Both the position numbers and the translations under genes were made by a program. A stretch of 64,000 nt of DNA from an uncultured Planctomycetia bacterium (GTDB lineage: Bacteria; Omnitrophota; Gorgyraeia; Tantalellales; Tantalellaceae), in NCBI GenBank assembly GCA_964527765.1, contig CAZGQR010000003.1:75366-139365 (forward strand), read 5' to 3'. Shown piece by piece: positions 461-15,411 of the stretch (the stretch's first letter is position 1; each line of letters begins with the position of its first letter). The notes under the pieces were generated by a model, which was not told the DNA's origin, did not search any database, and saw nothing but the letters and a program-made list of their open reading frames with translations.

Positions 461-871
461 TTATACTTTTGACGGCGGGGTGTTTTTCAGGTATTCCGTG
501 GAGGCTTTCCTGAAAGAAAGGCTTTTGCGGTTGTATAGGTTGCATTCTCTCCGGAACTGCGTGATCTCTCCGATCTCTTTTTCAAGCGTTAGGGGAAAGT
601 CTTTCGGAACATTAAAGAACTTGGCGCCGATGTTATAGATATTCTTCCCGAGCTGCCTGACATAGACGATGATCGCCTTCAGGCGGAACATCTTGTTCTT
701 AAGGAAGACGTGGACATGTACCTTGTCATTTTTGCGCACTTCTTCCGTGGCAGTGAACGCAATGCCCCCTCCGCTTACATCTACCAGATCAAGGGGCCCG
801 TTCACGTGCTTTTCATCCCCTTCGATCGGGTAAGCGGCCATATAACGCTTCCATTTTCTTCTTTCTACCAT
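461..871 (-). CDS. Stand-alone PilZ-domain protein (c-di-GMP receptor type), 136 aa
   Basis: Start taken at internal ATG 871 (MVERRKWKRY...); the longer 263-aa ORF overlaps the upstream gene. Both PilZ signatures are present: RRKWKR (RxxxR) and DVSGGG (DxSxxG). Confidence 0.75.
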   Translation of the reverse strand: MVERRKWKRYMAAYPIEGDEKHVNGPLDLVDVSGGGIAFTATEEVRKNDKVHVHVFLKNKMFRLKAIIVYVRQLGKNIYNIGAKFFNVPKDFPLTLEKEIGEITQFRRECNLYNRKSLSFRKASTEYLKNTPPSKV

Positions 872-975: not shown

Positions 976-1608
976 TCAGCGGGCGGCATCGCCGTTTTCC
1001 GCTTCTTTGCCGACAAAAAGAAGAGGAAATATGATATCGCTTACGCAGCAGGGCACCCAAACGGCGAGAAATAAAAATAAAAAGACAGCCGCGTAGGAAA
1101 AGAAATTTAACGCTTTCCCTGCCGCCATGATAACATGAAAAAGCGACGCCCATGTGCTTACCAGAACATGTCCCGCGTGCGGAAACCGGGTCCTGGGCCA
1201 GAAATACGCAATGGTTATGCCGGCCACAGCGAGAGGGTTCACAAGCCACCATTCCTCGATAAAACCTATATGCGGTTCGGCGTGCGGCATCCCCAGGAGA
1301 AGTTCCCCGAGATAGGGTATGACCGAATCACTTAATGTCGCTATGCCGATCGATCCAACGTAGCCGACAATAAGCAGCGCCGCAATACTGCATCGTCCCC
1401 TGTCGGCCCTGCACTTATAATTTTTGTACATGGCGGCAGTAACCAGCGCGCTCAGGACAACGTGTATCGGATGAAGCGTGTAAAAAACATCGTAGGCGGT
1501 CCTGTAGGGCAGCTTGCAGAAAAACAGCATGATGACCACTCCTGTCAACGCGCCAAAAGCGGTAAACGGGGCATGCCTTCTCAGCTCGTACAGGATTGTG
1601 CTTTTCAT
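976..1608 (-). CDS. Polytopic membrane protein rich in conserved-looking His/Cys, function unknown (possible metal/ion transporter)
   Basis: 210 aa, about 6 hydrophobic segments, motifs HPIH, HAEPH, HAGH, CC. Starts 13 nt after the upstream GT gene, so likely the last gene of the operon. Confidence 0.5.
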   Translation of the reverse strand: MKSTILYELRRHAPFTAFGALTGVVIMLFFCKLPYRTAYDVFYTLHPIHVVLSALVTAAMYKNYKCRADRGRCSIAALLIVGYVGSIGIATLSDSVIPYLGELLLGMPHAEPHIGFIEEWWLVNPLAVAGITIAYFWPRTRFPHAGHVLVSTWASLFHVIMAAGKALNFFSYAAVFLFLFLAVWVPCCVSDIIFPLLFVGKEAENGDAAR

Positions 1609-1621
1609 GTGCGGAAAGCTC

Positions 1622-2662
1622 TTACTCGCTCAGTAATCTCTCAAACAGGTCTATATACCGCCTGGCTATTCTTTTCGGTGAATGCGCTTCCACGAATTTA
1701 TCCGCGTCTTCTATAAGGTGTTTCCGCTTCTTCTCGCTGCCAAGCAGGTCGATGAGTCTCTTGTTCAGGGCGGTAATGTCCCTGTAGTGGATCACTTCGC
1801 TTGTCCAGTCATGAAAAAAATCCGACTGACTGGGGACGAATATCGGACAGCCGGCGCCCATCGCCTGATAGACGGTCGACGAGACAACAGCGTGGAACCG
1901 GCTCTGGAATTTATGAAGGATGACCGCGTCCGAGGCAAAAAGGTAATCATCGAATTCTTTCGTCGACAAAGCATTGCATTTTCGCACTATCCGCCAATCG
2001 GTGGGGGTCAGCTCCTCAAGCATCTGGTAATCTTTGGCAACAAGATGCAAAAGGACCGCCTTTCTTTTGAGCTTCGGGGGCAGATCCCTGTAATAGGAAT
2101 GATACCCGCGCATGCCGAACGAATAGATGATCTTCTTGTCCAGCGGAAGTTTCAGCCTTTTTCTGGCCGCGGTTTTTTTGCACCTCCTCAGCTCCCAGGC
2201 GGGAAACGGGATATATTCCGCATCCGGGTAGATCTTCCGCAGGAAGTCCTGCCTGTGATCGAAATAAACGATCTTATCCCAGTCTATCTCATAAAACCAC
2301 GAATGGTCGCATATCCTGTTCTCGTGGACAACGTGCACCAGTTTTGCCTTCTTCCTCAGCACGGGGATTATATTGGACAATTTTTCCACCGGCAGCATTC
2401 CCAGGTCTTCGACAAGAAGCACGTCAAAATCGGTTTCCAGGAACGGGCGGGCATCCAGAGCATAAGTCCCTGTCCTTGTCCCGAAACATCTTTTCACGTA
2501 ACTTTCGTCCTTGGCGGTGATACCCTCCCCGTGATAATCATGCCTCGAAAAGGTGAACACCGTTACCTTGTGCCCCATCTCCCTGAAGGCCCTGCCTATG
2601 GGCTCCGCGTGCATCGCGACTCCGCTATTTGTATTCCATGCAGCCATGATTCCTATTTTCAT
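1622..2662 (-). CDS. GT-B fold glycosyltransferase-like protein (GT4/GT1-like), 346 aa
   Basis: Start at ATG 2662 (MKIGIMAAW) with GGAGG 7 nt upstream. N-terminal MKIxIxxxxxxxSGV and C-terminal ...YQAMGAGCPIFVP resemble GT-B nucleotide-sugar transferases. Family not firmly identified. Confidence 0.5.
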   Translation of the reverse strand: MKIGIMAAWNTNSGVAMHAEPIGRAFREMGHKVTVFTFSRHDYHGEGITAKDESYVKRCFGTRTGTYALDARPFLETDFDVLLVEDLGMLPVEKLSNIIPVLRKKAKLVHVVHENRICDHSWFYEIDWDKIVYFDHRQDFLRKIYPDAEYIPFPAWELRRCKKTAARKRLKLPLDKKIIYSFGMRGYHSYYRDLPPKLKRKAVLLHLVAKDYQMLEELTPTDWRIVRKCNALSTKEFDDYLFASDAVILHKFQSRFHAVVSSTVYQAMGAGCPIFVPSQSDFFHDWTSEVIHYRDITALNKRLIDLLGSEKKRKHLIEDADKFVEAHSPKRIARRYIDLFERLLSE

Positions 2663-2710
2663 TCCGTATCCTCCTTCTGGCAGAACGTTTCTGCAGTCGC
2701 CCAAATATTA

Positions 2711-3778
2711 TCATGTAAACGGAACTTTTGCAAGGCGGTCCTCTTTTAAGATGTCCGAAACCGTTCCCTGCCACTCCGTGTCCCCGTAACGTATCTTCCG
2801 GAAATGCCAGTATTCGGCCCCCCAGAGCAAGATGGCGTCAACTCCAAGCTCCCGGAATTCCCTGAAAAGTTCCGCCATCATCTCGGGCGCACTCGTCAAT
2901 ACCGCCCCTTCCCCTTTATGGACCAGCTGGCCGGGCTCCCAGGGTTCCGCTTGAAGCTCCGCGATCCAGGCCTTTTTTCCCTTACTTTGCGCGAGCGCCA
3001 GGACTTTTGAAAAATATCTCTCCCGCTCCTTCCGGCTGGTGCGGAAATATAGATCCGCGTTCCAGAACTCTTTTCCTACGACCGGATAGACATTAAGCCC
3101 CAGGATATCGCCTATGGCCAGGCATTCCCTGACGGGGTCATGCCGGCTAAGAAGGCGGTTGAGAAAGCGAAGGATCCTGTTGGGATATGTTGCCGTCGTC
3201 AAAAGGATCGGGCGCTTTCTCCCGTCGAGGCTCCTTACAAGCTCCACTTCCTGCTCTAAAAAAGCCCTGCCTATAAACCAGTATTGCCTCCCGGTGCGGT
3301 TCAGCGGCTCGTTCTCAACCTGCCACCAATGTATGATGGAATCGTCCTTATAGCGATCTACGACTTTTCTTATGAATTGAAGCGTGCGTTTTCGCAGATA
3401 TTCGTCTCTTGAGACATCCGTGCCGAAGGAAAGAGAAGTTCTTTTCAAGACCCAGTCGGGGATAAAATATTCGGGCCACCGGGGAGCCTTCATGCCTACC
3501 GTCAGCGCAACAGGGACCTTCTTTTTCGCGGCTTCATGTATCTGCCAGTCAAGAGCGGAAAAGTCATAGACATTTTCTTCTTTCTCTATTTCGTCCCAGT
3601 AGGCTCCCAGGCGAATAAGGTCGAACCCGGCCTCGAGTATGGAAAGATAGGTTTTTTCCCGGTCCATCCCCAGGTATTCGCTCTGGCGCGGACTGTAGGT
3701 CGTTCCTATTTGCACCGGTCCCGCATACAGCGCCGAGCACTGGAAAACAAATAATACCGCGAGGGCAAGCGCCTTCAT
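2711..3778 (-). CDS. Secreted clan GH-A (TIM-barrel) glycoside hydrolase, GH42/GH5-like
   Basis: Signal peptide MKALALAVLFVFQCSALYAG. Acid/base motif WQVENEP and candidate nucleophile strand WIAELQAEPW. N-terminal Y-x-P...AGFDLIRLG..W..IE..E..YDF pattern is typical of clan A. Confidence 0.65.
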   Translation of the reverse strand: MKALALAVLFVFQCSALYAGPVQIGTTYSPRQSEYLGMDREKTYLSILEAGFDLIRLGAYWDEIEKEENVYDFSALDWQIHEAAKKKVPVALTVGMKAPRWPEYFIPDWVLKRTSLSFGTDVSRDEYLRKRTLQFIRKVVDRYKDDSIIHWWQVENEPLNRTGRQYWFIGRAFLEQEVELVRSLDGRKRPILLTTATYPNRILRFLNRLLSRHDPVRECLAIGDILGLNVYPVVGKEFWNADLYFRTSRKERERYFSKVLALAQSKGKKAWIAELQAEPWEPGQLVHKGEGAVLTSAPEMMAELFREFRELGVDAILLWGAEYWHFRKIRYGDTEWQGTVSDILKEDRLAKVPFT

Positions 3779-3785
3779 AGACTTG

Positions 3786-5423
3786 TTATTTCCGTTTTTT
3801 GTCGGTGACCCAGAACGTCATATACCTGCCGAACATGAGCCGCGTCTGGGCATCCAGCGCAGGCAATGCGCTCAAAAAGATGATCGTCAGCGGGACCAGC
3901 AGCCACTGCAAGGCGAACCCTATCCTTTTAAAAATAGGATGTTTTTCTTTCTTTTCGGGCAGCAGCAGCAGGCTCAGTATGATGCTTGTGATCAGCGAGA
4001 GTGTCGCGAGGTGAAATATGGTTCCTGTGATGCGCGGCGCGCTGTAATAAAAGACGGAGTGCGAAAAATCCCTTCCGGCGAAAATAGCCGGCAGCCACCC
4101 GATGATCGTAAGCAGAAAAGCCCAGGTCGTCCAGGAAATATGGCCTTCGAACAATTTATACCCGCACTTTATCCTGCTCATGAGGGGTATGCCGCTCTTT
4201 TTCAAAAAGGCCCTCATCACTATGGGAAAATTTTCCACTCCCCAGGCCCATCGTCTTTTCTGCTTGTAGACATTGACGACCGTCTGCCACCATGTATCTG
4301 CGACCACCGCATCCATGGAAAGCGTGGTATACATCGGGACCACATGATATTTTCCGTCATAATGGACAAATGCTTTCCAGAATATAGCCGAGTCGTCCGA
4401 GATCATATCCACCGGCCAGTACCCTACTTCGACCAACGCTTTAAAACTCATGCTGTGGCTTGAAAACGTGACCAGCGTCTGGGGGTTGGTCGCCTCGATG
4501 AGCTGAAAAAAGGAAGACCCCGCCTCAAGGACCCTGGTGATCCCCGGCGCATCCCAGATATTATTGTTGTACACCGGTACGGGCTGAAAGCTTGCGCGGG
4601 TCCTCCACGGACATATCAAGAAATAATAAGTAAGGCTTGCGAAATACATGGGGCTCACCACTGTATCCGCGTCAAAACAGGATGAGATCACATTATCAAA
4701 ATGGATCTTTCGCTCCGCGAAATATTCCGCTGCTCTCTTCGCCGCAAAGGTCGTGTTGGCTCCCTTGGCCCGGGCCTCGCCGACAATACCGTCGGGGTGA
4801 ACGACTATCAGTATATCGAAAAAAGAGTCCCGGTAAACGTCCCTGATCTGTTCTGCCCCCTTTTTGACTTCCCCGCTCGCTCTTTCTTCCAGGGCCAGGA
4901 TCACCACGATCTGCTTCGGGGGAAATGTTCCTGCGGCAAGGCTTGCGATGCCCGGCTCGACGACTTCACGCGTCTCCTTGGCTACCGGGATAATGACCAG
5001 ATGATAAATATCCGCTGAAAGCGGCTGGTCGCCCCCGGCCCCTTTCAGGGATTCGACCTCCCTGCGATGGCATAACAGCGAGACCTTCTCCCTCGCATCC
5101 CCCGTTAAGGGCCGTTTCTTGAGCTGCCCAAGATATTCATCAAGCCGGTCCAGGCCGCGCACTCTTTCCATCCAGTCGGTCTTCTTCTCGACAGAAAGCC
5201 TGAGATAGGAAAGAATAAGGAAAAGGGTCATGTATAACAACTTTAAAAGCCAGTAAAAATAAAAAGCGATTATTATCACGGCGGCGGCGAGGGGATGCAC
5301 AAAAGCCAGGATGGCCAGCCCTATGATGATGGTCCAGCTCGTTGCGCCGGGGACGATCTCAAAAAAACGCTGAAGTGTTCTTTCCCGTCCGGTCAGCTTA
5401 TTGCCGGTGAAGTCGAACCTCAT
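3786..5423 (-). CDS. Integral-membrane processive family-2 glycosyltransferase (beta-glycan synthase-like)
   Basis: 545 aa with N- and C-terminal TM bundles. Motifs CFDADT (DxD), ISDDS (ED/TED-like) and QKRRWAWG (QxxRW). Stop/start overlap (ATGA) with the upstream PEGA gene. Confidence 0.8.
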   Translation of the reverse strand: MRFDFTGNKLTGRERTLQRFFEIVPGATSWTIIIGLAILAFVHPLAAAVIIIAFYFYWLLKLLYMTLFLILSYLRLSVEKKTDWMERVRGLDRLDEYLGQLKKRPLTGDAREKVSLLCHRREVESLKGAGGDQPLSADIYHLVIIPVAKETREVVEPGIASLAAGTFPPKQIVVILALEERASGEVKKGAEQIRDVYRDSFFDILIVVHPDGIVGEARAKGANTTFAAKRAAEYFAERKIHFDNVISSCFDADTVVSPMYFASLTYYFLICPWRTRASFQPVPVYNNNIWDAPGITRVLEAGSSFFQLIEATNPQTLVTFSSHSMSFKALVEVGYWPVDMISDDSAIFWKAFVHYDGKYHVVPMYTTLSMDAVVADTWWQTVVNVYKQKRRWAWGVENFPIVMRAFLKKSGIPLMSRIKCGYKLFEGHISWTTWAFLLTIIGWLPAIFAGRDFSHSVFYYSAPRITGTIFHLATLSLITSIILSLLLLPEKKEKHPIFKRIGFALQWLLVPLTIIFLSALPALDAQTRLMFGRYMTFWVTDKKRK

Positions 5424-6886
5424 GATCCTCCTGTTTGTTCGGTTTTATTTTCTTCCGTTGCTGCGGGAAAAGGCGTCGGGACCATGCCCTTGCTGGGCAC
5501 TATCTCGACCGAAAGAAGGTTCTCCGTCCCGGGTTCAAGAAAATACATTTTCCCCGTCTGTTCCGCATAATAGACCGCGCTTTTATCTTTCACATGAAAA
5601 AGATGATCCAGCGTGAACTCGCCATATTCCTCTATCTCTATCAGGAAAACGTCATTACCGTCCCGAAACAGTATGTGCGACCCCTCGTATACCCAGAAAC
5701 ACTGTTCGATGTCCTTGCCCTCCCTGTAGGCCCACGAAAGGGTAGGGCCTTTTTCGAACTGCACATCCTGTGTTTCCTCGGTCGAGAAGTCCAGTATCCC
5801 GATCCTGTCTTTCTGCCATACAAGCGCGCGCTCGAGTTTCGGATCGAATTCGACTCCCCTTACGCCTTTTTCGATAAACCGGTACGGGAGGCGGTTCGCC
5901 AGAAGCTTTCCGTCCTCACCCAGAAAAAGCATATAATCTTCGGAAAGAACCCTTACGTGAAAAAACCCCTTTTGTCCGAAGATAGAGGCGCCCAGCGCCT
6001 GATCGTCCATCAGCACTTTTTTGCTTTTTGTGTCATAGCTCATTTTCAAAAAAATATTATCACCGTGCAGAACGTATACTTCGCCGTTGAGCAGGCCGTA
6101 CCCCCGGACGTTCGGAACGCACCTTGGGTAGACCGCGCCGGAATCTACCTCCACCCGGCTCAGATAGTCTTCCTGAAAGGCAAAAAGAGTTTTTTCCTGC
6201 CCGGGCAGCCATTTGACCGCGCTGGGCACAACAGGGAAAAGCCCCGTAATATCTTCAACTGCATCCTTGTCTTCTCCGAGCTCTACCCATAGAAATCTCT
6301 CCCCGCCCCGGGAAGCAAGGCGCAAAATGACAACACAACTTTCCCTCACCGTAAAATATGACGCCAGTTCAGCGCCCGCAAAAGGAGAGTCTTTTTCAAA
6401 CAGCGCATGCGCTTTTTCGTTATTGTAATCGTATACCAGGATATCCCCCGCCGCCGGCCCGCCTGCAGCGAGAAAAAAGCCGCTTCCGGGAACGGGGAGC
6501 AGGTCCTGTATCCTATCGGGAAGAAGGGTGCTGGTTTTCCACTGAAGCGGCAGCAGCAGGATCTTGTCCAAAACCGTTGCTTTTTCAACTTCTACGGGGA
6601 CCGTCTGAGACCAGGGTTTATGATCATCCAGGGTCAGCTTGACGGGATAATCGCCCGGGACGAGCCCGCGGACCACAGTCGGGGTATTCTCCGCGTACTG
6701 ACTGTCCTTCAGGTAAATGGCGGCACCGGTCGGAGCGGTCGATAAATAGATCACCCCTGTTTGCACAACGCTCTCCTCCGCCCCGGGCCTGTAAATGTAC
6801 CCGAACGCATACAGAAGAATAAGCGGGCACAAGATTATGTATATGGCGGCAAAAATGTAAAAGAAGATCCTTCTTAAAAGCTGCAT
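5420..6886 (-). CDS. N-terminally membrane-anchored PEGA-domain protein with large uncharacterised ectodomain
   Basis: TM helix FFYIFAAIYIILCPLILLYAF, then a PEGA-like segment STAPTGAAIYL...NTPTVVRGLVPGDYPVKL. About 400 aa of beta-rich sequence follows. Translationally coupled to the GT2. Confidence 0.65.
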   Translation of the reverse strand: MQLLRRIFFYIFAAIYIILCPLILLYAFGYIYRPGAEESVVQTGVIYLSTAPTGAAIYLKDSQYAENTPTVVRGLVPGDYPVKLTLDDHKPWSQTVPVEVEKATVLDKILLLPLQWKTSTLLPDRIQDLLPVPGSGFFLAAGGPAAGDILVYDYNNEKAHALFEKDSPFAGAELASYFTVRESCVVILRLASRGGERFLWVELGEDKDAVEDITGLFPVVPSAVKWLPGQEKTLFAFQEDYLSRVEVDSGAVYPRCVPNVRGYGLLNGEVYVLHGDNIFLKMSYDTKSKKVLMDDQALGASIFGQKGFFHVRVLSEDYMLFLGEDGKLLANRLPYRFIEKGVRGVEFDPKLERALVWQKDRIGILDFSTEETQDVQFEKGPTLSWAYREGKDIEQCFWVYEGSHILFRDGNDVFLIEIEEYGEFTLDHLFHVKDKSAVYYAEQTGKMYFLEPGTENLLSVEIVPSKGMVPTPFPAATEENKTEQTGGS

Positions 6887-6895
6887 ATCTTCTCT

Positions 6896-8323
6896 CTACC
6901 TTTCCAGTCCTTCCCAGATAACTTCGAAACGCTTCTTAAGATCATCGGTGGAGAACGGCCAGACCGTGCGCCCGTAAAGAGCCTGGGTTACTTCCTTGTA
7001 GGAAAGCTTGTTCATCCTGAACTTAGGTATTTTATTGTCGATCTCAAGACAGTAGCGCATGAGCAGGAGCTGTTTCTGGACCATGTGGGGAAGCAAAAAG
7101 TGCTGCTGCACGGTCTCCCGGGCATGCTTGCTGAGAGTTTCCCGCAGCAGTTTATCTTCCAGGATAGACCTTATTGCCCGGAATATTTCGGCGCGCTCAT
7201 AAGGCTCGACCAGAAAACCGTTATGCCCGTTCACGACCTGCTTCTTTATCCCCCCGACCTTACTGCCTACCACGGGAGTCCCCTGCCACATCGCCTCAGA
7301 GACCACAAGACCGAACCCTTCCTTTGTGGAAACATGGACAAAGCAATCGGCGATCGTCAGAAGCGAGCCGATGATCTCGTCGTTATTTTCCACATTGAGC
7401 AAAAGGTGGATGTCCTCTTCTCCCTCGGCGGCTTTTTTCATCTCTTCGTACATCTTCATGCCCTCGGGGTCGTCGGTGGCGGAATTGCCGACCAGGATAA
7501 GGAGCGGGTGGGCCCCTTTTATGGGATTTTTTTTCAGAAGTTTAAACGCTTCTATGATAGCCCTCTGGTTCTTATGAATATCGTACCGTGATACCGCTGC
7601 CACTATCGGCCGTTCCGGATCTATATTATGCTTGTTGAACAATTGTTCCAGGGTCTTCAGGGCCTCCTTCCTGGAGCGGGGTTTATTCTTCGCCCGCAGG
7701 GGGTCGATCGAGGGGGTTATTTCGTAAGCGGGGATCTGTATGTTGTCCCTCATAAATTCCTTCGCCGTAAAGATAGCCCCTTCGTATTGGTTGATATAAG
7801 GAAGCAGAAAACGCCAGATCCTGCGGCTGGCGCTTGAAGTATCTATATGGCACCGCCAGAATATGTGGCCGTATACATTGCCGTTCATGATTATAGCGGC
7901 GGGCTGCGGGTCGTGGATAGTGACCATGTGCCCCACGACTTCTACCCCGCGGGTATTTTCATCGATCGTGTCAAGATAGGCGTGGAAGATCTCCCTGAGC
8001 GTGATGGTCTGGTCGACCCCCTGAAGCAGGTTGTGGAATTTCTTCGTCACCGTGAAAAATTCTTCGCTGCCCTCTATGACGAACCACCTTGCGTCGATGC
8101 CGAGCCCTCTCGCGAACGGTACCACGCTCTGGAGCATCTCCGCGACGCCGCCGCCGATAAAAGTGGAGTTTACGTTCGCCCATACTTTCTTCTCCAGGTC
8201 CCCGGCCAGGAACTTGATATTGTCCATCAATTCCTTCCCGACAAAAGGCTCATACAGATCGACATTAACGGGCTCAAGCGGAACATATTCGTTCCCGTAT
8301 TTTCTGCTCTTATCATCAAACAT
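6896..8323 (-). CDS. GT4 glycosyltransferase, TreT-like (trehalose glycosyltransferring synthase family)
   Basis: Motifs VNSTFIGGGVAEML, IDARWFVIEG..EFF.VTKKFHN.LQG, HDPQPAA, WRCHID, PSIDPL and EGFGLVVSEAMW match my recollection of archaeal/bacterial TreT. Overlaps the otsB stop by 8 nt. Confidence 0.6.
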   Translation of the reverse strand: MFDDKSRKYGNEYVPLEPVNVDLYEPFVGKELMDNIKFLAGDLEKKVWANVNSTFIGGGVAEMLQSVVPFARGLGIDARWFVIEGSEEFFTVTKKFHNLLQGVDQTITLREIFHAYLDTIDENTRGVEVVGHMVTIHDPQPAAIIMNGNVYGHIFWRCHIDTSSASRRIWRFLLPYINQYEGAIFTAKEFMRDNIQIPAYEITPSIDPLRAKNKPRSRKEALKTLEQLFNKHNIDPERPIVAAVSRYDIHKNQRAIIEAFKLLKKNPIKGAHPLLILVGNSATDDPEGMKMYEEMKKAAEGEEDIHLLLNVENNDEIIGSLLTIADCFVHVSTKEGFGLVVSEAMWQGTPVVGSKVGGIKKQVVNGHNGFLVEPYERAEIFRAIRSILEDKLLRETLSKHARETVQQHFLLPHMVQKQLLLMRYCLEIDNKIPKFRMNKLSYKEVTQALYGRTVWPFSTDDLKKRFEVIWEGLER

Positions 8324-9137: not shown

Positions 9138-10622
9138 TTATTCTTCTCTGATCATGAAGGGCTTTTTTGCCTGCTCGAAATACCGCAGGCAGTTCTGAAG
9201 CCAGATCCCAATATTGTTGAATTTGATGTTTCTGCGCATCCTGCCCATCCTCCGCCTTCTTTCCTCCACCGGCATATGGAGAGCCTGATATATGGCATTG
9301 GCGATGTCTTCGATGCTGTACGGATTGACGGGAAGACAGTTCTTTATCTCGGCTATGGCCCCGGCGAACTTGGAAAGGACCAGAACGCCGTCATTGTCGG
9401 AATGGGCGGCAACGTATTCCTTGCACACAAGGTTCATCCCGTCCCTCAACGGGGTCACCAGGGCCACGTCCGACGCCAGATAAAGGGCTACCAGCTCCTC
9501 AAACGGGATCGTCCCGTAATTGTAATGGATGGGCGCCCACAGGCCTGTCGAGAACTTCCCGTTGACCCGCCCGATTATTTCATCGATCTCTTTCTTCAGC
9601 GTTTTGTAAGTCTCCACGTCTTCCCTGCTGGGGATCACCAGCTGATAATAAAAGAATTTTTCTGCCAGCTCGGGATGTTCGTTAAGAAGCTGCTCCAGGC
9701 CGAGCAGTCTTTCCTTTATGCCCTTGGAATAATCGATGCGGTCAATGCCGAGTATCAGTTTCGGGCACGCGGCCTGCTGAAGTATCTCCTCTTTTCTCGC
9801 GATCACTTCCGGCTTGCGCGATGTTCTGTCCAGCAGCTCGAAATCTATGCTTATGGGGTTGGCGAAAAAACGTGTTTTGATATTCTCCTCGATGGTTTTA
9901 TCCTTCGGGATGCTTTTTTCTTTAAGATAGACATCGACCGCTCCCAGGAAATTTTTCAAATACTGCCGGTGCTGAAAACCGACCGTATTGCAGCAAAGAA
10001 GGGACCTTAGTATCTGTCGCTGCCACGGCAAGATCGAAAAGATATCCATGTGCGGGAATGGTATGTGCAGGAAAAAGTGTATTTCCTGTTCCGGCCGCAG
10101 CTGCCTGAGGTAATAGGGCGCCAGGAACAGGTGGAAGTCCTGGATCCATACGATATCGTTTTCCGCGGCGACCCTGTCGATGCAGGCGGCAAAACGTTTA
10201 TTGACCGCAGCGTATGTTTCCCAGGCGGAATAATCAAGAAAGGATTTTTCGAAAAAATAATGAAAAAGCGCCCACAGGGTGCCGTTCGAAAAACGGTTAT
10301 AATATTCGTCCAGCTCGTTGTGGTTTATAGGCACGCAGCCGATGCGGTAGGATTTGCCCCGTTTCCGCCTGAGCTCCTCTTTGGATTCTACTTTCCCGAT
10401 GTCTATAAGTTTCAGTTTCTCTTTTTGCGGGCTTTCAGCGGGGTATCCGTCCCAGCCCAGCCATACCCCGTCGGCATCGAGCAGGATCGGCTCCATGGCG
10501 GTAATAAGCCCGCCCGCGGCTTTCCCCCAGGCAAAGTTGCCTTTTTCGTCCTTATACCTGTAAAAAGGAAGCCTGTTAGACACGACAACGAGGCCCCTGT
10601 CTTTGCCCTTAAAGCGGATCAT
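9138..10622 (-). CDS. otsA: Alpha,alpha-trehalose-phosphate synthase (GT20)
   Basis: VVVSNRLP, WLGWDG, VWIQDFHLFL, GIDRIDYSKGI, LVTPLRDGMNLV: classic OtsA blocks. 494 aa. Confidence 0.92.
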   Translation of the reverse strand: MIRFKGKDRGLVVVSNRLPFYRYKDEKGNFAWGKAAGGLITAMEPILLDADGVWLGWDGYPAESPQKEKLKLIDIGKVESKEELRRKRGKSYRIGCVPINHNELDEYYNRFSNGTLWALFHYFFEKSFLDYSAWETYAAVNKRFAACIDRVAAENDIVWIQDFHLFLAPYYLRQLRPEQEIHFFLHIPFPHMDIFSILPWQRQILRSLLCCNTVGFQHRQYLKNFLGAVDVYLKEKSIPKDKTIEENIKTRFFANPISIDFELLDRTSRKPEVIARKEEILQQAACPKLILGIDRIDYSKGIKERLLGLEQLLNEHPELAEKFFYYQLVIPSREDVETYKTLKKEIDEIIGRVNGKFSTGLWAPIHYNYGTIPFEELVALYLASDVALVTPLRDGMNLVCKEYVAAHSDNDGVLVLSKFAGAIAEIKNCLPVNPYSIEDIANAIYQALHMPVEERRRRMGRMRRNIKFNNIGIWLQNCLRYFEQAKKPFMIREE

Positions 10623-10676: not shown

Positions 10677-10706
10677 ATTATAACAATTAAGAAAGCTTAT
10701 TTCCAA
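10677..10706 (-). promoter_or_regulatory. Candidate sigma70-type promoter of the otsA operon
   Basis: Minus strand TTGGAA-18 nt-TATAAT in the AT-rich 129-bp spacer, about 55 nt upstream of the otsA ATG. Confidence 0.4.
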
Positions 10707-13554: not shown

Positions 13555-15411
13555 CTATTCCACCGTGACCGATTTGGCGAGATTGCGCGGCTGATCTATA
13601 TCATACCCGAAGTCCTCAGCCACATGATACGCCAAGAGCTGCAGCGGGATGGCGACAAGGATCGGCGAGAACGTTTCCTTGATCCGCGGGATCTCGATAA
13701 TATCGTCTATACGGCCGTCCCGCAGCACCTTGTCGCCCTCAGAGATAATGGCGATAACGATGCCGCCTCTGGCCTTGATCTCCTGAATGTTCGATATCAT
13801 CTTGTCGTAGGTATCAGCCTGCGGCGCGATGCAGACCACCCACGGGTTTTCGTCTATAAGGGCGATCGGGCCGTGTTTCATCTCTCCCGCGGGATACCCT
13901 TCCGCGCTGATATAAGAGATCTCCTTGAGCTTTAATGCCCCTTCAAGCGCGTTGGGATAGTTTATGTTTCTCCCCAGATAAAGAAAACAGCTTTTGTTGT
14001 TTCGGGCCAGGTAATATTCATGGAAGTCCGCGGCGTATTTCGCAAGAACATTTCCCCGCGAACGGTATTTATCCAGCAGCCTGTCGGCGAGAGCCGGTAT
14101 CTTCTTGAGGTCTTTGAGAAATTGCGCCCTCTCCCTTGCGGGGCGTTTTTTTACCCGGGCAAGATAATAAGTTAAAAGATACAGCACGGCAAGCTGCGCA
14201 GTATATGCCTTGGTGGATGCCACGGCTATTTCCGGGCCGGCGTGCGTGTATATCACCCCGTCGGACTCCCTGGCGATGGAGCTGCCCAGAACGTTGCATA
14301 TGGCCAGGACGAGCGCGCCTCTTTTTTTTGCTTCCCGCAGCGCCGCCAGGGTGTCGGCCGTTTCGCCGGATTGCGATATGACGATCACCAGCGTATCCTT
14401 GCCCACCAGAGGGGCCCGATAGCGGAACTCGCTTGAGAAATCCACCCATACCGGGATCTTCGCATATCTTTCGATCATGTATTTACCGGTGACCCCTGCG
14501 TGATATGCCGTTCCGCAGGCAACGACCGCGATCCTTTGCGCTTTTCTGAACTGCGTTTCGGAAATCGCGAGTTCTTCGAATCTCACCCTGCCCGTCTTTA
14601 TTCTTTCCTTGAAAATATTGCGCAGCACTTCGGGCTGTTCAAAGATCTCCTTCAGCATAAAATGTTTGTATCCCGATTTCTCGGCCTGTGATATGTCCCA
14701 TTTTACCGCTGTCGGCCTTCTGCGGACCTTTTTTCCTTTTGCGCCCCAAATAACGCATCCCTTCGCCGAAAGATCCGCCACTTCGCCGCTTTCAAGATAA
14801 ATCGCCTTTTTAGTGTACTCGAGCACGGCAGGTATATCGCTGGCGATAAAATTCTCTTCCTCCCCCAGGCCGACGATCAGCGGGCTGTCCCTGCGCGCTC
14901 CGACGATCCTTCCCGGCTCCCCCTTGTGCACTACCGCTACCGCGAAAGAGCCTTTCAGTTTCTTTATCGCCGTCCTGACGGCCATGCAAAGATCCCCTTT
15001 ATAGTGCTGTGCGATCAGATGCGCGATGACCTCGCTGTCGGTGTCGGAAGAGAATGCATATCCTTTGTTCTGCAGTTTTTTCTTCAGTTCGAGGTAGTTC
15101 TCGATAATGCCGTTATGAACGATTGCGATATGCGTTCTGGGGTCGACGTGAGGGTGCGCGTTTATATCGTTGGGGGCTCCGTGCGTCGCCCATCGCGTGT
15201 GGCCTATGCCCGTCTTTCCCCTGAGCGGTGCGCGTTTAAGCTCGTCTATCAGAACGGACAGTTTGCCCTGTTTTTTCCTCACATGCAGTTCTCCCCCCCT
15301 TAAAACAGCGACTCCCGCTGAGTCGTACCCGCGGTATTCAAGGCGGGAAAGTCCCTTGATGAGAATTTTTGACGCGTCCTGATTTCCTGTGTATCCTATG
15401 ATCCCGCACAT
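13555..15411 (-). CDS. glmS: Glutamine--fructose-6-phosphate aminotransferase
   Basis: MCGIIGY N-terminal nucleophile, two SIS domains, C-terminal ...RNLAKSVTVE. 618 aa. Confidence 0.95.
   Translation of the reverse strand: MCGIIGYTGNQDASKILIKGLSRLEYRGYDSAGVAVLRGGELHVRKKQGKLSVLIDELKRAPLRGKTGIGHTRWATHGAPNDINAHPHVDPRTHIAIVHNGIIENYLELKKKLQNKGYAFSSDTDSEVIAHLIAQHYKGDLCMAVRTAIKKLKGSFAVAVVHKGEPGRIVGARRDSPLIVGLGEEENFIASDIPAVLEYTKKAIYLESGEVADLSAKGCVIWGAKGKKVRRRPTAVKWDISQAEKSGYKHFMLKEIFEQPEVLRNIFKERIKTGRVRFEELAISETQFRKAQRIAVVACGTAYHAGVTGKYMIERYAKIPVWVDFSSEFRYRAPLVGKDTLVIVISQSGETADTLAALREAKKRGALVLAICNVLGSSIARESDGVIYTHAGPEIAVASTKAYTAQLAVLYLLTYYLARVKKRPARERAQFLKDLKKIPALADRLLDKYRSRGNVLAKYAADFHEYYLARNNKSCFLYLGRNINYPNALEGALKLKEISYISAEGYPAGEMKHGPIALIDENPWVVCIAPQADTYDKMISNIQEIKARGGIVIAIISEGDKVLRDGRIDDIIEIPRIKETFSPILVAIPLQLLAYHVAEDFGYDIDQPRNLAKSVTVE

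Follow-up and report, generated by a model that had tools for sequence, protein, structure and literature searches.

Knowledge of synthase-dependent polysaccharide systems comes from a few model bacteria, and the picture of the machinery has shifted with every type of synthase partner discovered (BcsB, PgaD, GlxA). Whether a further system of this kind exists, and which genes it comprises, is the question raised by a cluster of minus-strand genes in a 64,000 nt stretch of an uncultured Omnitrophota genome (positions 75,366–139,365 of contig CAZGQR010000003.1, GenBank assembly GCA_964527765.1; hereafter the window). The original prediction, made from the sequence alone, was a four-gene module: a family 2 glycosyltransferase (GT2), a membrane partner with a PEGA domain, a secreted glycoside hydrolase (GH) of clan GH-A and a GT-B enzyme. 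We find that the conserved unit is a bicistronic operon of the partner and GT2 genes, whose products probably make and export an envelope sugar polymer. The hydrolase accompanies this core in certain lineages only and the GT-B protein falls outside it, which reduces the four-gene proposal to a two-gene unit that can be directly expressed and tested.

An open reading frame (ORF) scan of the window agrees with the layout as first described: four close-packed minus-strand ORFs (1622–2704, 2711–3778, 3786–5423 and 5420–6886), with gaps of 7 nt between GT2 and hydrolase (3779–3785) and 48 nt between hydrolase and GT-B (2663–2710, using the ATG start), and an ATGA overlap at 5420–5423. The partner/GT2 junction reads GGAGGATCATGA; here ATG and TGA share four nucleotides, and a Shine-Dalgarno-like GGAGGA precedes the overlap. 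The four genes are not a closed unit in this genome, because they are embedded in a longer co-oriented run from OtsA (from 10622) through OtsB, TreT, partner, GT2, hydrolase and GT-B to a 210-aa membrane protein (to 976), in which no gap exceeds 48 nt.

A scan of species-representative genomes gave at least 537 GT2 relatives, of which the best 80 loci, including the complete genome of Ca. Velamenicoccus archaeovorus, were used for neighbourhood counts. These were scored in two ways, by searching the 80 loci with the window proteins (tblastn) and by independent ORF clustering. A GT2 identical to that of the window is encoded on 13 metagenomic contigs, and there are more than 3,000 homologues with 55–86% identity over the full length; the relatives are Candidatus Omnitrophota. 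In 78 of the 80 loci the gene just upstream of GT2, in the same orientation, is that of the partner, and the remaining two loci end at that edge, so the predicted translationally coupled PEGA partner holds up well. The commonest junction is a 4-nt overlap (29 loci), followed by a 1-nt overlap (7 loci). Genes around the pair vary by lineage and are frequently on the opposite strand. The core is set at two genes because adjacency of the partner is kept while everything else around the pair varies, and this adjacency, with stop and start codons overlapping despite variable flanks, rules out chance for the pair. The expected co-occurrence of GT2, PEGA protein and hydrolase therefore stands for the PEGA protein but is limited to some lineages for the hydrolase, which is directly downstream of GT2 in 24 loci, all from closer relatives, with a spacing of at most 36 nt or an overlap in 15 of these. 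The GT-B gene is present in about 10–14 loci, often apart from the other genes, the hydrolase gene included.

Identities over shared loci show how strongly the synthase is held: 74% for GT2 against 74% for pyruvate kinase, 70% against 55% for the hydrolase and 63% against 38.5% for the partner. Our homologue search found no partner homologues outside Omnitrophota. The result is a phylum-wide, strongly conserved synthase–partner pair in Omnitrophota.

The GT2 protein (545 aa) reads as a minimal member of the BcsA/PgaC/HAS class of inner-membrane synthases. Its motifs are E150, E179, DAD251, SDD342 and QKRRW388, the last three as first reported. Hydropathy and charge predict a cytoplasmic N-terminus, two transmembrane (TM) helices, a cytoplasmic GT-A domain, two more TM helices and a hydrophobic helix at 498–522, which has Lys/Arg-rich segments on both sides and therefore fits an interface helix leading into a cytoplasmic loop. 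The protein ends in FWVTDKKRK. In a Foldseek search with the GT2 model, ranks 1–5 were all BcsA chains. With hhalign, a 38-sequence family profile that includes distant relatives matched Escherichia coli BcsA at 97.3% probability (E 2e-11), while a narrow Omnitrophota-only profile gave 4.7%. All catalytic motifs are in register (GT2/BcsA: IIPVAKE/VPTYNE, RAKGAN/HAKAGN, DAD/DCD, TFSSHS/FFCGS, SDD/TED, QKRRW/QRIRW). Against E. coli PgaC the same 38-sequence profile gave 96.7% (E 3.6e-10), and the 326 aligned columns take in the C-terminal TM helices.

The position of E179 (LALEER) corresponds to the canonical Asp pair after strand 2 of BcsA (ILDDGG). The Glu is invariant family-wide, distant relatives in Patescibacteria included, and is an unusual Asp-to-Glu change in a nucleotide-binding motif, one departure from the canon. 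At the C-terminal end, the segment FWVTDK (537–542) has an invariant K542 and a nearly invariant T540, even in relatives at 27–40% identity, and takes the same form as FNVTAK of E. coli BcsA. FXVTXK is a recognised gating loop of cellulose synthases (PMC11022532), and FWVTDK is accordingly read as a putative gating loop of the FxVTxK type. E. coli PgaC ends shortly after a similar WVSxxR loop, and the GT2 would thus be a PgaC-sized minimal synthase with a BcsA-type loop motif. Apart from this, two family members, P0262 (672 aa, labelled 'GxxExxY protein' by one source) and P0291 (652 aa), carry insertions of about 100–150 aa inside or before the GT domain.

In the partner, Pfam finds a PEGA domain (PF08308) at residues 44–107, with 32.2 bits against a cutoff of 20.8. 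An AlphaFold model (pLDDT 87.5) has an N-terminal TM helix (about 2–27), a PEGA beta-sandwich (44–110) and an eight-bladed beta-propeller (118–461) of 32 strands, four per blade. What had been taken for an uncharacterised ectodomain of about 400 aa is, in the model, this propeller. The TM helix is predicted to be an N-in signal anchor, which would place PEGA domain and propeller entirely in the periplasm. Foldseek matches (Lp49, ODA16, BamB, Tako8) are generic seven- or eight-bladed propellers. There are 37 near-invariant positions in total, with 7 among the first 34 residues as compared with 19 among the 353 of the propeller; this peak over the N-terminus and TM helix suggests a specific intramembrane contact. 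Several Trp and Tyr residues are conserved. The partner alignment contains no invariant or near-invariant His, and its sole conserved Cys (C20) is inside the TM helix, so the propeller is not an oxidase. A copper oxidase role like that of GlxA was ruled out in this way, no metal ligands being conserved.

The third gene encodes a 355-aa single-domain protein with the predicted signal peptide and ENEP motif (in WQVENEP). Its invariant residues are E155-N156-E157-P158, with E157 as putative acid/base, and E274 and E278. The expected clan GH-A matches were obtained but are partial: Pfam GH42 scores 40.6 bits over profile positions 12–146 of 376 only, GH10 and GH5 also match, and profile matches to GH42, GH35, GH10 and GH5 are weak and confined to the N-terminal half, with PslG marginal. 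PslG itself belongs to clan GH-A and acts in a different polysaccharide system. The name in public annotation, GH42 beta-galactosidase, does not suit a partial match in a 355-aa single-domain protein with a signal peptide; the GH42 structures matched have 671–712 aa. The protein is best described as a probable single-domain clan GH-A enzyme, to which these matches assign no CAZy family.

From the observed gene order, fold class, motifs and conservation we infer processivity, translocation, a physical complex and the identity and destination of a product, as follows. With slightly more than even confidence, we take the GT2 to be a processive synthase-translocase, the partner its periplasmic co-subunit and the hydrolase, where present, a trimmer of chains. 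The cytoplasmic GT-A domain would transfer sugar from a nucleotide-sugar donor to the non-reducing end of a beta-linked chain, which would be held at the tryptophan of QKRRW while the C-terminal FWVTDK loop closes over the donor, and the chain would be pushed through a narrow pore formed by the four TM helices and interface helices. Translational coupling would supply partner and GT2 in matching amounts. The conserved N-terminal TM helix of the partner probably docks on the synthase, so that the PEGA sandwich and propeller may sit over the periplasmic exit to receive or guide the polymer, and the partner may be needed for activity, as BcsB, PgaD and GlxA are with their synthases. In about one-third of lineages, including that of the window, a co-transcribed, secreted hydrolase, probably of clan GH-A, may trim or release periplasmic chains. 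There are two weak hints that the donor is a hexose such as glucose: the FxVTxK motif is of the BcsA type, and trehalose genes, which use UDP-glucose, repeatedly lie near the pair. None of the 80 loci has an outer-membrane exporter linked to the pair; together with GT2 conservation at the level of pyruvate kinase, this makes a constitutive envelope or periplasmic glycan likelier than an optional biofilm matrix.

The wider family gives the strongest support to another reading, one that we consider rather unlikely: that the GT2 is a non-processive or oligomerising-only transferase, acting in a half-tunnel on a polyprenyl-phosphate-linked or lipid acceptor in the manner of the archaeal enzyme PcManGT, with a product that is flipped and used outside the membrane and a PEGA-propeller protein that is an acceptor, a scaffold or an unrelated envelope protein. 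A full-library profile search returned 2,228 clusters at 50% identity (455 with E < 1e-30), and these include a distant GT2 clade (about 30% identity) in Patescibacteria (Pacebacteria, Woesebacteria, Microgenomates). We collected 80 Patescibacteria neighbourhoods (L085–L164). The recurrent context there is MetRS, TatD, GT2, an ArnT-like GT-C, a 127-aa protein with three TM helices, a WecA/MraY-like transferase, UbiA and PMT. The ArnT-like GT-C (534 aa, EPYWYGDEG motif) is beside GT2 in 44 of the 80 loci (e.g. L134:3375-12826). This looks like typical polyprenyl-phosphate-linked (lipid-carrier) glycosylation, and the partner is absent from these 80 loci, where a hidden Markov model (HMM) search gave only two weak matches, on genes elsewhere. 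Both points weigh against a synthase-translocase with a co-subunit, as do several from the window protein itself. The original expectation of a Pfam Glyco_trans_2_3 (PF13632) match was disappointed, with 23.0 bits under the cutoff of 27; 31 of the 38 family members match at E < 0.01 (best E 5.5e-12), which makes the family a divergent relative at the edge of this model. Sequence searches against solved structures, with the single sequence or a 31-sequence profile, gave nothing relevant. The region after QKRRW has no significant alignment to BcsA, and a forced alignment of the C-terminal 141 residues with BcsA 500–640 failed, so that the gating-loop assignment draws on motif and topology only. 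Four TM helices only are predicted, and the structure model has low confidence at residues 284–322 and 337–344, near the active site. The hydrolase also adjoins sugar-transporter and trehalose genes and may therefore serve sugar metabolism rather than trimming. Against the lipid-acceptor reading are the profile matches to BcsA and PgaC (97%) and the NCBIfam results among the 38 family members, which include PgaC_IcaA in 15 and the cellulose-synthase models CelA in 3 (marginal) and PRK11498 in 1, with no match to a glycolipid or polyprenyl-phosphate sugar synthase model, so that a placement in such a non-processive GT2 family was not seen. The FxVTxK loop is conserved family-wide, and PgaC, which is proven to make a polymer, is built along equally short lines and ends just after its similar loop. 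A coupled periplasmic partner and a secreted hydrolase are also easier to explain with a product that comes out on the periplasmic side. Compared by description, PcManGT differs in being shorter, with fewer TM helices, all of them C-terminal, and we know of no periplasmic partner for it. It is a crenarchaeal dolichyl-phosphate-dependent mannosyltransferase of 346 aa with three TM helices (PDB 6YV7; PMC10569066).

A synthase-translocase with its co-subunit has also to be weighed against two readings that we find improbable. One holds that the neighbours came together by chance or through general carbohydrate metabolism, with no dedicated module and with hydrolase and GT-B protein serving sugar uptake or trehalose. 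The hydrolase gene is indeed followed by an MFS sugar transporter gene in 5 loci and by OtsA/OtsB in 6, the GT-B gene is found in few loci and often apart, and the flanks of the pair vary. This reading leaves unexplained why the PEGA and GT2 genes, their stop and start codons overlapping, stay adjacent in 78 of 80 species-level loci amid those variable flanks, and the hydrolase, being secreted, cannot act on cytoplasmic trehalose metabolism. The other, to which we give still less credence, is a canonical Bcs cellulose or Pga poly-N-acetylglucosamine system whose other components have diverged beyond recognition. It can point to BcsA as best structural match, PgaC_IcaA as best NCBIfam match, the FxVTxK-type C-terminus and a PilZ protein nearby. 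The PgaC_IcaA match (TIGR03937) has 28.6 bits against a cutoff of 422, however, the CelA matches are marginal, and PilZ is near GT2 in only 7 of the 80 loci. As first noted, the GT2 has no fused PilZ and no BcsB, BcsC, PgaB or PelB-type neighbour; across the window and the clustered neighbours of the 80 related loci there is no BcsB, BcsC, GH8 BcsZ, PgaA porin, PgaB deacetylase/hydrolase or PgaD either. At the level of membership this reading is largely refuted. Relative to BcsA–BcsB, the GT2 lacks TM7–8 as well as the fused PilZ, ending at residue 545 right after the loop motif, and the partner is N-terminally anchored with a fold (PEGA plus propeller) unrelated to BcsB or PgaD. The likeness to PgaC–PgaD and IcaA–IcaD is closer in the synthase, where two N-terminal TM helices precede the GT-A domain, C-terminal TM helices follow it and the protein stops just after a W-V-(S/T)-x-x-(R/K) loop. 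PgaC depends on a small co-encoded membrane partner, PgaD, a peptide with two TM helices, whereas the partner here has 488 aa (TM helix, PEGA domain, eight-bladed propeller), and the C-terminal motif here is of the BcsA type, FxVTxK.

The pair is a member of none of the Bcs, Pga, CslA–GlxA and Opg systems, each of which fails on defining features. Its logic matches BcsA–BcsB, PgaC–PgaD and especially Streptomyces CslA–GlxA–CslZ. GlxA carries a propeller of seven blades, and CslZ is not known as a clan GH-A enzyme. In Streptomyces a GT2 synthase likewise goes with an N-terminally anchored extracellular beta-propeller partner and a co-located hydrolase, and the propeller-containing partner is required for synthase activity (PMC11022532). 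GlxA differs in being a radical copper oxidase with a Tyr-Cys cofactor, while the propeller here lacks conserved His or Cys, has eight blades and is joined to a PEGA domain; the partner gene is downstream of the synthase in Streptomyces and upstream here; and CslA, unlike the GT2, retains PilZ elements. With a system of similar composition described (PMC11022532), PslG as a precedent for a clan GH-A hydrolase and a minimal architecture matching PgaC, the novelty originally claimed was too strong. OpgG–OpgH resembles the pair in having a periplasmic-protein gene upstream of and overlapping a membrane GT2 gene, in lacking a dedicated outer-membrane exporter and in a tie to osmotic adaptation, which for the pair the trehalose genes suggest. 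Membership in an OpgGH-like system of periplasmic glucans was rejected by homology (hhalign GT2 against OpgH, 4.4% probability), and a comparable function is left as speculation. OpgG, moreover, is a glycoside hydrolase with a beta-sandwich fold and has nothing of the PEGA-plus-propeller build.

Literature searches on PEGA domains in synthase-dependent systems and on Omnitrophota glycosyltransferases brought up no earlier account of this pair. New here are the partner architecture, the phylum-wide conservation and the sharing of the GT2 family with Patescibacteria, a family that, with about 2,200 clusters at 50% identity, forms a so far uncharacterised branch within the BcsA/PgaC superfamily. 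Patescibacteria are the other large group of ultra-small, host-dependent bacteria. To our knowledge there are no isolates of Omnitrophota. A bolder form of the proposal, which we regard as unlikely, takes the product for an envelope or periplasmic beta-glycan that is made constitutively, may be essential and marks out Omnitrophota as a phylum, the synthase family being otherwise almost confined to Patescibacteria; the trehalose linkage would then reflect osmotic or desiccation protection. In that event nanobacteria would have a hitherto unrecognised route to a polymer of the cell envelope, distinct from biofilm exopolysaccharides and served by a synthase co-subunit of a new class. A product that belongs to the core of the envelope would have implications for surface construction and host contact in ultra-small bacteria. 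Should the GT2 instead prove to be a lipid-linked transferase, it would give bacteria an equivalent of the archaeal PcManGT 'half-tunnel' enzymes. The features of the locus are listed in Table 1.

Table 1. Coordinates in the window of the partner–GT2 pair and its surroundings
Feature	Position	Strand	Size	Role	Basis
Stand-alone PilZ-domain protein	461..841 (ORF alternative to 871)	−			Pfam PilZ, 35.6 bits
Polytopic membrane protein	976..1608	−	210 aa	Neighbour only in closest relatives	
Cytoplasmic GT-B-like protein	1622..2662	−	346 aa from ATG	Peripheral neighbour	Sub-cutoff Pfam
Secreted clan GH-A TIM-barrel hydrolase (predicted)	2711..3778	−	355 aa	Lineage-restricted accessory	Pfam, profiles, signal peptide
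GT2 synthase	3786..5423	−	545 aa	Core component	Motifs, profiles, Foldseek, topology
Translational-coupling junction (GGAGGA and ATGA stop/start overlap)	5420..5436	−			Sequence read
Partner protein	5420..6886	−	488 aa	Core component	Pfam PEGA, AlphaFold model, Foldseek, loci comparison
TreT	6896–8323	−		Trehalose synthesis	
OtsB	8316–9122/9131	−		Trehalose synthesis	
OtsA	9138–10622	−		Trehalose synthesis	
Best sigma-70-like promoter match	10677..10706	−		Candidate start of gene run (weak)	10/12 and extended −10 TG; in 129-nt gap upstream of otsA

TreT, OtsB and OtsA are directly upstream of the partner gene in the window, co-oriented and closely spaced. Trehalose genes (OtsA, OtsB, TreT) adjoin the partner, GT2 and hydrolase genes in about 10 of the 80 loci (including L006, L012, L016, L027, L029, L034 and L045), in two orders: upstream of the partner gene, as in the window, or downstream of the hydrolase gene, as in other loci. 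The linkage suggests a functional tie, which may lie in UDP-glucose supply or in osmotic adaptation. In some of these loci OtsA is of a divergent type (34% identity). The match upstream of otsA, the only good promoter-like site of the run, is a weak candidate for the start of the co-oriented run; in a scan for promoters and terminators, site counts in the region were not above the expectation from shuffled sequence.

Of the remaining genes of the run, that for the GT-B protein has an ORF extending to a TTG at 2704, and public gene calls start it at the ATG at 2662. Pfam Glyco_transf_4 gives 24.1 bits, under the cutoff of 28.5, and Glyco_trans_1_2 is also sub-cutoff. The 210-aa membrane protein, present in 6 of the 80 loci, has no Pfam or NCBIfam match. 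The PilZ gene is 461–841 in public calls (126 aa), and a mechanical ORF at 461–1252 is an over-extension that overlaps the gene for the 210-aa protein. The stand-alone PilZ protein could possibly serve as a c-di-GMP receptor in trans.

Several other genes recur near the pair. In L005, L009, L020, L021 and L061 the gene after that of the hydrolase encodes an MFS sugar transporter (Pfam Sugar_tr, E 1e-124). An NAD-dependent sugar epimerase/dehydratase recurs nearby (6 genes in 5 loci), as does a DHH/DHHA1 phosphoesterase (4 loci); loci with one or the other include L007, L010, L012 and L022. One Omnitrophota subgroup (L052, L056, L070, L072, L079, L083) has genes for an ABC ATPase and a TolC-like outer-membrane factor (Pfam OEP) upstream of the pair and divergent from it. 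In the window, GlmS (glutamine-fructose-6-phosphate aminotransferase, supplying the UDP-GlcNAc pathway) is encoded on the same strand at 13555–15411, about 6.7 kb upstream, and is not among the recurrent neighbour clusters of the other loci. Beyond the low end of the window, the source contig (L001:14994-19815) continues directly past the PilZ gene with genes for a 1,097-aa protein that Pfam does not match and for a membrane glycosyltransferase of family GT87 (GT-C type).

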